IMG/VR virus record: IMGVR_UViG_3300023235_000014
Reading direction: 5' to 3' (one strand)
Origin: a virus
Length of the DNA: 64,000 nt
Shown: positions 23,772 through 25,558 of the stretch, in pieces
How positions within the stretch are numbered: position 1 is the first letter of the stretch
How the letters are laid out: every line of letters starts with the position of its first letter
The notes under the pieces: generated by a model
The model's input: only the letters and a program-made list of their open reading frames with translations
Database searches by the model: none
Told to the model about the DNA's origin: nothing
Position numbers and translations under genes: made by a program

Positions 23772-24119
23772 ATGCTGACTAGAACCGCAAAAATTCCAAA
23801 TGTCACTGTGCACCCTGATAGTGACTGGCCAGGCTATATTGGGATTCAAGGCGGACGTGCGGGCGCATGGGCTGGCGAAGTGCATACGACACAAAAGTCT
23901 GTAGACTCAGAAAAAATTGGGCGTTTCGTTGAACTACTCGAAAACAACAAATCCCTCAACCCAATAGAGGTATTTCAGCACAAGCGTCAGGTTTGGATTG
24001 TGGATGGTCACCACCGTCTAGCAGCTTACCGAATTGTCGACCCAAGCAAGCCTGTGCCTGTATGGGTTTATAAAACAGGAAGAGGGGGGGGGACTACGTG
24101 CCACCTCCAAAGTTTGTAA
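23772..24119 (+). CDS. ParB/Srx-like nuclease-domain protein. It ends in a G9 homopolymer that separates it from the downstream ART-like ORF
   Basis: 'VWIVDGHHRLAAYRIV' is the ParB N-terminal-domain signature. RBS GGAAGGTGG. Confidence 0.55.
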   Translation: MLTRTAKIPNVTVHPDSDWPGYIGIQGGRAGAWAGEVHTTQKSVDSEKIGRFVELLENNKSLNPIEVFQHKRQVWIVDGHHRLAAYRIVDPSKPVPVWVYKTGRGGGTTCHLQSL

Positions 24120-25051
24120 GTGAAATGAAGACCAACGACAACCTAGAGTCTCTACTTGAAGCAATCTCGGCTGGCTCCTATGAGAAGATTGCGGGTGCTA
24201 AGCCAAACGACATTCTTACAGTATACCACGGCACCTCCCTGTCACGGATACAAGAATTGATCAATGGCTTTGATGCCACACAAGTACGGGGCAGAGATTA
24301 TGGTGGACCGAGGCACAGAGGCCTGTTCGTCACTCCAGATTTTGAAGTGGCGAAAAAGTTCGGTGACGGAACCATATTGGAATTGAAAGTGTACGCCAAG
24401 TTCATCCACGGAACTGATTACTCGGGCGTAACTGGCCGAGAAGAGCGGAAGCTAAAAGGTGATGATGCTCTTGACTGGGTTAAAAACAAGTTCCCCAACT
24501 CCTTCAGGCCCTGGATGTCTTTTGGGATGCTTGAGCCGAGCAATGAGCCGCAAGGTCTTTTAATTGGTGTTGTTAAGCCTGCACAGATTACACGTGTCTG
24601 GACTTTTGACCGCAAGGAAAATAAATACACCGAACATACCCGTGAGGAGTTCCTCAAGTCGGGCATATCCTATAACGCAAGCTACAGAGGTGGCAAAACG
24701 GAGTACGAATATGTACATGATGCAGGTGTTGACTTGTCTGACCCGCAGTTAAAGCTTAACGACTTCATTCATGCGCTTGCTGAATATGAACAAGGCGAAC
24801 CAGAAAAGTATCTTAAGATGTTTAAGTTCTACGCCGAGAACTTGCCCGAACGCATGAAAGAAAAGCTTGAGAACATCGCAATCGGAGGTTCCAAGCTTGG
24901 CCCATTAGCGGTCAAAAACATCTCGAAAGAACTTCTTGCACTTGTGAGTGTGAATGAAGCCACCGCCTCTCTTGAACCGCTTTTGGAATATTTGCTTTTT
25001 GAAGCACGGACAAACACTGATAAAACCCTAGAGGGGGTTTTAGAAGATTGA
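24098..25051 (+). CDS. 'YHGT'-family protein, a putative H-Y-E class (PARP-like) ADP-ribosyltransferase-like protein. The start is uncertain: GTG at 24098 or ATG at 24125
   Basis: 'ILTVYHGTSLSRIQELINGFD', then 'HRGLFVTPDFEVAKKFG', then 'TILELKVY'. Compare PARP 'LLWHGSR...GKGIYFAD'. Confidence 0.4.
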   Translation: MPPPKFVSEMKTNDNLESLLEAISAGSYEKIAGAKPNDILTVYHGTSLSRIQELINGFDATQVRGRDYGGPRHRGLFVTPDFEVAKKFGDGTILELKVYAKFIHGTDYSGVTGREERKLKGDDALDWVKNKFPNSFRPWMSFGMLEPSNEPQGLLIGVVKPAQITRVWTFDRKENKYTEHTREEFLKSGISYNASYRGGKTEYEYVHDAGVDLSDPQLKLNDFIHALAEYEQGEPEKYLKMFKFYAENLPERMKEKLENIAIGGSKLGPLAVKNISKELLALVSVNEATASLEPLLEYLLFEARTNTDKTLEGVLED

Positions 25052-25558
25052 GTAGAGCGAGGAATCAAGGTTGATGAAGGGCCGCATTGGTTCCCACCTA
25101 GGGAACTGTTCCGATACAGAGAGTTTCACAGGGACTCAAGACCAGATCTCCAGAAGTCCATGAGTGAGAAGGGGTTTGACCCAGAGCACCCAATTCAAAT
25201 GATCTTTGGCAAGAATGGTGTTGCTATGGTCGGCGAGGGTAACCATCGCTTGAAGACTGCTATCCAACTCAAAATCCCCAAAGTCCCTGTGATATTTCAT
25301 TTCCGTGAATCCATCGAAAAACATGGCGATGTCGAGAGTGAATACACACAGATAAGGGATAGAGAACTTCTCCGCAAGCAGCAAAAGGAGAGACAAACTG
25401 CGGCATACAACAGAAAACACGGCATTGATAAAGACCGTGAGCAGCGTCAGGAACGTGAGAGGCTTGACCGTGAAGCTATGTCACCTGAGGAGCGTGAACG
25501 GGCTGAGCGTGAAAAAGAAGCCTCGGTTGATGAGTTAATGAGTCTTTTCAACTACTAG
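25052..25558 (+). CDS. Second ParB-like nuclease-domain segment, with a basic/acidic coiled C-terminus. It is in the same frame as 24098..25051, separated only by TGA, and the domain begins before the first ATG (25160)
   Basis: 'WFPPRELFRYREFHRDSRPDLQKSMSEKGFDPEHPIQMIFGKNGVAMVGEGNHRLKTAIQLKIPKVPVIF' is a ParB N-terminal-domain pattern. There is no canonical start between the TGA (25049-51) and the ATG at 25160. Confidence 0.4.
   Translation, partial: VERGIKVDEGPHWFPPRELFRYREFHRDSRPDLQKSMSEKGFDPEHPIQMIFGKNGVAMVGEGNHRLKTAIQLKIPKVPVIFHFRESIEKHGDVESEYTQIRDRELLRKQQKERQTAAYNRKHGIDKDREQRQERERLDREAMSPEERERAEREKEASVDELMSLFNY

Follow-up and report, generated by a model that had tools for sequence, protein, structure and literature searches.

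The 64,000-nucleotide stretch of viral DNA in IMG/VR record IMGVR_UViG_3300023235_000014 (the window) carries, at positions 23,772 to 25,558, three called genes that, judged by comparison with related loci, are one ancestral gene. Its three parts are a ParB/sulfiredoxin (Srx)-like module (the N-module), an ADP-ribosyltransferase (ART)-fold core and a second ParB/Srx-fold module (the C-module). The gene is now interrupted twice, at a run of nine guanines (G9) that lies on a change of reading frame and at an in-frame TGA. With moderate confidence, we attribute this state to lineage-specific lesions, fixed in a near-clonal population, that have split a modular effector gene into separately translated pieces and almost silenced the C-module. 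The lesions look lineage-specific and adventitiously leaky, and do not look like a conserved programmed recoding signal.

All parts of the locus lie on the plus strand. Open reading frame (ORF) 1 (23772..24119, frame 0, 115 amino acids) encodes the N-module, with the motif VDGHHRL, and the G9 homopolymer (24084..24092), read GGG GGG GGG in frame 0, sits at the junction of frames 0 and 2. ORF2 (24125..25051), in the −1 frame relative to ORF1, starts at GTG 24098 or ATG 24125 and encodes the ART-fold core (~200 residues, with an invariant YHG...HxGxFxT...EPQ signature) followed by a helical tail; it ends at TGA 25049–25051, which stands in place of a conserved Trp codon. Beyond this stop the frame of ORF2 remains open until TAG 25556–25558. 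The C-module (25025..25558) comprises a ParB/Srx-fold domain, in which the motif GEGNHRL occurs, together with a helical, charged tail and, at the C-terminus, a conserved peptide (DELMSLFNY). The first ATG, GTG or TTG after the TGA is ATG 25160, which leaves a 36-codon stretch lacking a start codon (25052..25159), and mechanical calling begins a 132-residue ORF3 there (25160..25558).

By direct reading of the sequence, frame 2 is open from just after TAA 24071–24073 and frame 0 is closed by TAA 24117–24119. The two frames are jointly open only across 24074..24119, G tract included, so any change of frame must fall within this interval. The first 107 residues of ORF1 are in the ancestral frame, and its last 8 codons (TTCHLQSL) form an out-of-frame tail past the tract. 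The ORF1 stop and the core start are arranged as TAA 24117–24119, 5 nt and then ATG 24125 (24117..24127), a spacing at which termination-reinitiation would be feasible. A tract of G10 or G7 fuses ORF1 and ORF2, and G8, G9, G11 and G12 leave them separate. The G10/G7 reading of the window (...GRGGGDYVPPPKFV...) is colinear with a homologous protein, P0002 (...SSGDFIRPPKFV...). A first-pass annotation had reported the G9 tract, ORF1 and the second ORF in another frame, and every coordinate was verified; it had also placed ORF2 and the second ParB-like module in one frame split only by the TGA, as is the case, and had predicted that a one-G change would fuse ORF1 and ORF2, which a G10 tract does in a form colinear with P0002.

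We searched for homologs with the conceptual fusion protein as query, and 26 were returned. P0002 (607 amino acids) holds all three modules in one protein and aligns over 100% of the fusion at 48% identity (52% between the two N-modules), bearing out the idea that this was originally a single multidomain gene. Its locus, L003, is syntenic with the window: upstream lies the same divergent DUF7178 gene, and the gp23-like capsid gene is 640 amino acids long in both. P0002 is colinear with the +1G fusion across both junctions; at the G tract it reads VPVRVYKRDSSGDFIRPPKFVRMKENN, and the +1G reading of the window is VPVWVYKTGRGGGDYVPPPKFVSEMKTN. This colinearity means that the G tract is the exact point at which the true reading frame leaves frame 0 for frame 2. 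There is no homopolymer at this junction in the DNA of L003 (which reads AGAGATAGTAGTGGTGAT) nor in any of the 11 relatives. At the position of the TGA, 5 out of 5 related loci with a C-module (L001, L002, L003, L022 and L023) have TGG, and in L022 the DNA flanking the site is near-identical to that of the window (GTTTTAGAAGATTGGGTAGAGCG against GTTTTAGAAGATTGAGTAGAGCG). A local tblastn of the fusion against the 11 related loci gave one segment in one frame for each (0/11 interrupted). Only one related locus (L003, encoding P0002) has this N-module, and there it belongs to a single ORF; a closer relative, L001, has lost the N-module altogether. The first-pass annotation had reasoned that independent confirmation of G9 and TGA, together with related genomes showing three separate genes with their own starts, would refute its interpretation. 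Both features were confirmed independently, but at these junctions the relatives do not have three genes, each with a start of its own; their architecture is one gene, or core and C-module as one gene.

The G9 tract is the only run of G or C of at least seven in the 64 kb, the runner-up having length 6. The chance expectation for G/C runs of at least nine in the window is 0.12–0.18, so that the tract is an outlier yet alone only modestly improbable; its placement exactly on the frame junction is what counts. GGG is the rarest Gly codon in window genes (14% of Gly codons), and three consecutive GGG codons are therefore not ordinary codon choice.

The TGA at 25049–25051 differs from TGG by one G-to-A transition and lies ~8 residues into the C-module. 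This module (25025–25555) has a ParB/Srx fold. It has no Pfam or NCBIfam match and only a weak one to PHROG 940 'nuclease' (E=0.0057), and its motif GEGNHRL is near-invariant across the family. We found 165 representative homologs, many of them stand-alone proteins of 140–260 amino acids. In the stand-alone homologs the module starts ~8 residues before the Trp, with the consensus (S/T)(I/L)EEVxxRW, which places the TGA inside the C-module and not at its edge. The homology had been described as starting right after the stop, a true statement that slightly understates its extent. Trp is conserved at the position of the TGA in 14/16 family members, and with TGA read as Trp the window C-module keeps 17/17 family-conserved residues.

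The 36 codons between the TGA and ATG 25160 are the best-conserved segment of the whole protein (70–78% identity to P0001, P0002 and P0003). Within them lie the invariant Arg-Glu of the YREF/YREY motif and the fold's opening strand and helix (strand 12–14 and helix 16–22 of the model). We considered ORF3 from ATG 25160 as a genuine shorter gene and rejected it, the 36 upstream codons being present in every inspected stand-alone homolog, most of which have the Trp as well. ORF3 as called is probably not a functional unit and looks like a C-module truncated by gene calling, because the Trp, the invariant Arg-Glu and the best-conserved codons all lie upstream of its ATG. There is no Shine-Dalgarno-like sequence upstream of ATG 25160, and neither promoter nor terminator signals inside the locus, which could set ORF3 apart as a separate transcription unit, exceeded chance. 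At the other end of the module, members of the family share a conserved acidic-hydrophobic C-terminal peptide, D(D/E)(L/I)MxLLG(F/L), represented in the window by DELMSLFNY at 25529–25555; versions of it end P0001, P0002, P0003, P0013, P0026, P0034, P0036, P0037 and P0047. By its sequence it looks like a candidate docking peptide, and it may resemble the clamp-binding tails of T4.

Both lesions are real, and random sequencing error is excluded. By exact protein-sequence look-up, the 115/317/132-residue arrangement occurs on 16 contigs, the downstream neighbor gene on 22 and the upstream neighbor on 9. Four sequencing runs (assembled in Logan), at least six assemblies in ENA (MEGAHIT-style k141 contigs) and four JGI metagenomes are the sources of these contigs; the records are consensus sequences of a near-clonal population, with locus identity of 99.9–100% across contigs, and some are perhaps re-assemblies of the same reads. 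Each of the 10 records spanning the tract has G9 and 11 records have the TGA, with three assembly sources represented among them. Contigs retrieved through the neighbor genes, a retrieval independent of the state of the locus, have the same gene calls. An exact look-up in a collection of 15 billion proteins found no protein for G7, G8, G10, G11 or G12 tracts or for TGG revertants. The exclusion of random error rests on the recurrence of the same G9 and TGA in these many contigs, the neighbor-retrieved ones included, and on this absence of alternative-length or TGG proteins. The absence of revertant alleles is drawn from exact look-ups and contig retrievals, not from the homolog search. IMG/VR and JGI metagenome contigs searched with exact or gapped DNA patterns from the G-tract and C-module regions gave no match, so that other tract lengths are not recoverable in this way. 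A protein-seeded scan of metagenome contigs gave only one partial contig, which ends short of the G tract, and the DNA of 23700–25600 had no match among GenBank phages. The sample accessions had no hit in a literature search.

ORF1 matches PHROG 1033 'ParB-like partition protein' (E=2.4e-10) and carries the VDGHHRL motif, in keeping with the original domain assignments, which were correct. Its score against Pfam ParBc_2 (14.7 bits) is below the cut-off of 23.6, the NCBIfam models parB_part and DGQHR were also sub-threshold, and a sequence search of the PDB returned only noise. ORF2 has the split beta-sheet NAD-binding core of the ART fold. Across 24 homologs the residues Y34-H35-G36, H64-x-G66-x-F68-x-T70, F79 and E141-P142-Q143 are invariant, and the window core is complete and retains every one of them. 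By their likeness to the diphtheria toxin/PARP motifs (YHGT; G-x-Y...Y 11 residues apart), these residues may form a putative H-Y-E-type site with Phe replacing Tyr. The core is 46–62% identical to those of P0001, P0002 and P0003. It has no match in Pfam, NCBIfam or PHROG models, and a PDB sequence-profile search gave only noise. A tblastn of the fused protein against 50,697 GenBank phage records found no match, and a BFVD viral fold search returned weak matches only, to Bacillus phage G proteins and to a 'PARP catalytic domain' protein at E=0.019.

The start of the core is conserved in position. ATG 24125 aligns with the natural core start in P0001, P0003, P0004 and L022, all of which lack an N-module, and the Met is kept even in the fused P0002. 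The N-termini MRTNLENLL (P0001), MASNLETLL (P0003) and MGSNLENLL (L022) compare with MKTNDNLESLL in the window. Gene callers place the start at GTG 24098, 5 nt after the purine-rich G tract (AGGAAGAGGGGGGGGG), and window genes typically have AGGA/GGAG-like sequences 6–10 nt upstream of their starts. The G run can also pair with CCACCUCC (24101–24108), which we take to match the anti-Shine-Dalgarno end of 16S rRNA. This pairing forms the only local hairpin, at about −12.7 kcal/mol, with GTG 24098 in its loop. In such a model the hairpin would keep both the GTG and the purine-rich stretch out of reach unless opened by ribosomes translating ORF1. The region around it is no more structured than shuffled sequence.

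Under the reading we favor, the G tract that encodes the Gly-rich linker has come to be G9, one base below the in-frame G10, and ORF1 consequently ends 8 codons past the tract at TAA 24117–24119, 5 nt before ATG 24125. Ribosomes ending ORF1 would restart on the core by translational coupling, yielding the N-module and the ART core as two polypeptides, and both are probably still produced in this separate form. Slippage of DNA polymerase, of RNA polymerase or of the ribosome on the G tract could yield a small fused fraction. The second lesion would be a G-to-A transition that made the conserved Trp codon near the start of the C-module into TGA. Since no start codon follows for 36 codons, and these are the best conserved, the C-module should be producible only by leak-through at UGA, usually by tRNA-Trp, which would restore the ancestral residue; in practice the module would be almost switched off. 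Peptides spanning the junctions of the recoded product would be GRGGGDYVPPPK and GVLEDWVER. A G9 tract should revert often, yet the consensus is stably G9 in every assembly, which argues that the fused form is not strongly favored. Among the explanations offered at first pass, a decaying or split multidomain gene fits best; that interpretation as a whole is partly supported, and its anatomy is right.

Several points weigh against this reading. A single gene of 1.8 kb has two lesions, each close to a module junction and each of a type that would leak back to the exact ancestral protein, a pairing that a tuned device for expression would show as well. Only 7/241 one-step nonsense routes (3%) lie in the 15 codons ending at the Trp. 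The C-module is free of secondary decay, as would be expected if the lesion were very recent or if readthrough kept the module under selection. Only consensus assemblies were seen, in which minority G10/G7 genomes or slipped transcripts would be invisible. The homolog search omitted the window's own proteins even though they are in the collection, and near-identical alleles may be hidden there. The coupling across TAA-5nt-ATG and the leak rates are themselves inferred from sequence. That both lesions spare the core and are of a type that would leak back to the ancestral form is compatible with very recent damage, sifted by selection on the core, or with a tuned device for dose control.

The locus might instead be a contingency locus, in which slipped-strand mispairing during phage DNA replication toggles the effector between split (G9) and fused (G10/G7) states, with both forms present in the population at all times as a bet-hedge against host defenses. 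We consider this unlikely, even though a long homopolymer in a coding region does set the frame here. The solitary run and its make-up of the rarest Gly codon would suit such a switch, as would its position in a linker, where the modules are intact in either state; there is also precedent in the hypermutable polyG tracts of phage genes (Sorensen et al. 2021, Cell Rep 35:109214, as cited in PMC10877375). At the consensus level, however, the length does not vary, with G9 in all 10 records and none of the five alternative-length proteins in the collection, and none of the 11 relatives (0/11) has a homopolymer at the junction. Slippage, moreover, could not reverse the TGA lesion.

We regard it as quite unlikely that the locus is a plain pseudogene, decaying as a whole, with no useful product from its three ORFs and an intact look that reflects only recency. 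Two disabling lesions in one gene speak for decay, the near-clonality of the population means that they could be very young, and the loss of the N-module from L001 points the same way. Against this, the core ORF is complete, with all residues invariant in the 24 homologs, and starts where the intact stand-alone relatives start. Both lesions also spare the core, when just 33% of one-step nonsense routes lie at or after the C-junction.

It is similarly improbable, in our estimate, that the two lesions are a selected two-tier dimmer of a packaged effector, in which a hypermutable G9 tract sets, across the population, the share of genomes encoding a ParB-ART fusion as opposed to two proteins, and a leaky UGA that restores Trp holds the C-module at ~1% of the core or less. 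If this were true, a potentially toxic or defense-triggering module would be kept at a trace dose, and a homopolymer switch and near-cognate UGA-to-Trp decoding would be found in the same phage gene.

Programmed recoding would require that a set fraction of ribosomes shifts −1 on G_GGG_GGG, or that RNA polymerase adds a G, and that a set fraction reads UGA as Trp, giving fixed ratios of four products (ORF1, ORF1-core, core and core-C-module). Readthrough of UGA by tRNA-Trp yields the A1 protein of phage Q-beta. In the window a perfect in-phase X_XXY_YYZ heptamer, G GGG GGG, occurs at 24086–24092, a match that is only formal, and past the TGA the sequence is undamaged and strongly conserved. 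The herpesvirus thymidine kinase is a documented example of a G run with low-level compensatory frameshifting (PMC5009743). Yet neither a shift site nor a stop is present at these positions in any of the 11 related loci (0/11), TGA is the normal terminator of 19/65 genes, and the window encodes no tRNA. We looked downstream for a pseudoknot or hairpin that could stimulate frameshifting and rejected the idea; relative to shuffled sequences the folding z-score is +1.09 for 24070–24200 and −0.16 after the TGA. Neither all-G heptamers nor the UGA-G context is known to serve as an efficient recoding site. This explanation, which had been raised at first pass, thus lacks sites shared by relatives, and we hold it to be very unlikely.

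It is hardly credible that the split is a sequencing or assembly artefact of a genome that truly has G10 and TGG: homopolymers are error-prone and only assembled consensus was seen, but the agreement of the records across three assembly sources effectively excludes the homopolymer error suggested earlier, and a TGG-to-TGA substitution is no homopolymer error at all. Equally implausible is an altered code (code 4) or a phage suppressor tRNA that reads TGA as Trp, rejected despite the Trp found in homologs exactly at the TGA because TGA ends 19/65 window genes, including the 640-residue capsid gene of the same length as its L003 homolog, the longest ORFs are not extended when TGA is treated as sense, and the 64 kb hold no tRNA; selenocysteine insertion was likewise rejected, as there is no hairpin after the TGA and the homologs have Trp, not Cys.

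The family to which the core belongs is highly modular. The core occurs without an N-module in P0001, P0003, P0004 and L022, with the ParB N-module in P0002 and with a different ParB N-module in P0006, P0008, P0009 and P0010. It is joined to a second ART-like domain in P0005, P0007 and P0011, to GNAT in P0010 and P0015–P0017, and to C-terminal ParB domains in P0012, P0014 and P0022; in L027 it is a separate gene adjoining its partner modules. The C-module is in turn joined to an unrelated ART-like domain in P0013 and to a zincin-like HEVGH protein in P0026. The second ART-like domain, small and unrelated to the core, carries ART-like motifs of its own (such as VFYHATP...GKLFF and NIWFHGT...MYLTPS) and is repeatedly fused to or encoded beside the core family: at L002 701–1186, at the N-termini of P0005, P0007 and P0011, in P0013, in the C-terminal parts of P0015, P0017 and P0018, and at L027 1714–2805. 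Just downstream of the window locus, a gene for a 196-residue protein (25946–26536) and a GNAT acetyltransferase gene (26540–26911) lie in the same frame 3 nt apart, and P0010 has a GNAT segment homologous to 26540–26911 within the same polypeptide as its ART core. To judge from these arrangements, the neighborhood is a set of apparently interchangeable modules.

The window belongs to a large phage of the T4 superfamily, whose capsid protein shares 36–46% identity with its counterparts in uncultured jumbo phages and in Flavobacterium phage immuto. Contigs carrying the locus reach 254–285 kb. The same short motif, (K/R)(R/E)(W/F/L)(Q/K)xLAG(I/L)(L/I)xE, opens at least eight separate window ORFs (for example MTTKKRWQRLAGILTE and MVTTKARLQKLAGIINE), which start near 21700(+), 25576(+), 25946(+), 35781(+), 42860(+), 43587(+), 43970(+) and 49986(−), and it occurs internally at ~34568(+). 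It is also found in L002 701–1186 and at module junctions inside P0006, P0008, P0009, P0010 and P0011. On its sequence, this motif could be a capsid-targeting or prohead-protease (L/I-x-E) signal of packaged proteins; no gp21-like protease was found among the ORFs scanned. The capsid gene 8 kb upstream of the locus and this recurrent N-terminal motif are contextual hints that the effector may be packaged in the virion.

DNA-modification and nuclease genes flank the locus (16311–19806, 22109–22882 and 26945–27646); they encode a Mom-family domain protein, a fusion of TnsA-N with an N6/N4 DNA methylase, an endonuclease VII/HNH protein and a Methyltransf_21 protein. These neighbors hint that the ParB-ART effector perhaps acts on nucleic acid. 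Elsewhere in the window, a 911-residue protein (38184–40922, minus strand) has a major-vault-protein shoulder domain (E=6.7e-24) with sub-threshold matches to Vault_3 repeats and SPFH/Band-7; this gene, unusual for a phage, is also present in the relative L003. An actin-like 'Volactin' protein (45392–47512, minus strand; E=7.7e-58) is apparently interrupted by an intein (Hint and LAGLIDADG domains). Two large paralogous tail-sheath-like genes of 1026 and 1004 amino acids (954–4034 and 5166–8180, plus strand) are separated by a GIY-YIG homing-endonuclease gene (4076–5068, plus strand), and a second GIY-YIG/NUMOD endonuclease lies at 30310–31257 (minus strand). The minus strand also carries a glutamine-synthetase-like gene (41012–42028) and an RNA-ligase-like gene (49979–52039).

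The locus is a well-documented natural case of a modular phage effector gene being split, by lesions fixed across many samples, while its enzymatic core survives. For annotation, it means that three called genes are not three genes, and that when a G tract breaks the frame in a phage genome from a metagenome, the cause is not necessarily a sequencing error. Were the lesions tuned, they would offer a simple model for dose control of an injected effector. In the long run the break may prove less interesting than the family of ART-fold cores, which large T4-superfamily phages combine with ParB/Srx, GNAT and other modules, and than the recurrent N-terminal motif. The kinds of element involved, namely a homopolymer frame break, a leaky nonsense codon and a polyvalent effector, are already known.

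Among known leaky stops, that of the A1 protein of Q-beta resembles the one in the window in being a UGA followed by a long conserved in-frame extension, and in the window insertion of Trp would give the ancestral residue. In Q-beta the stop is conserved and the extension essential, whereas in the window the stop is derived, the relatives have TGG and the next base is G. The G-run 'savior' indel of the herpesvirus thymidine kinase (PMC5009743) offers a parallel for the first lesion: a one-base indel breaks the frame, and low-level slippage on the same run gives some full-length product. That case concerns a eukaryotic virus under drug selection, and frameshifting in the window is only predicted. 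The hypermutable polyG tracts of Campylobacter Fletchervirus phages (Sorensen et al. 2021, cited in PMC10877375) are, like that of the window, tracts of ~9 G in a phage coding region whose length decides the protein made; bacterial contingency loci are a comparable system. The Fletchervirus tracts are reported to vary within and between stocks and to lie in receptor-binding protein genes, unlike the window tract, which is always G9, has no counterpart in relatives and belongs to an enzyme-type effector.

The polyvalent proteins of phages and conjugative elements are multidomain effectors that assort ART, ParB/Srx, GNAT and zincin-like peptidase domains into varying architectures; their genes lie close to virion genes, and the proteins are predicted to be packaged in the virion and injected as early effectors (Iyer et al. 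2017; PMC5512222). The family described here likewise includes ParB-ART-ParB (P0002) and ART-GNAT-ART2-ParB (P0015 and P0017) arrangements and a form of ~960 amino acids (P0006, P0008 and P0009). Multiple effector domains are combined in P0002, P0006, P0010, P0015, P0017 and P0026, and in the window copy only as the ancestral fusion. The window locus, 8 kb downstream of the capsid gene, also shares the proximity to virion genes (PMC5512222). Unlike other polyvalent proteins, the window copy is small and split into three ORFs. Its core motifs are like those of H-Y-E-type ARTs and unlike those of the Tox-ART-HYD2 clade of PMC5512222. T4 Alt, a capsid-packaged and injected ADP-ribosyltransferase (PMC5512222), is comparable to the core in having an ART fold and in being encoded by a phage of the T4 superfamily among late/structural genes; Alt is an R-S-E-type ART, whereas the window core has H...F/T...E motifs and no detectable sequence similarity to it.

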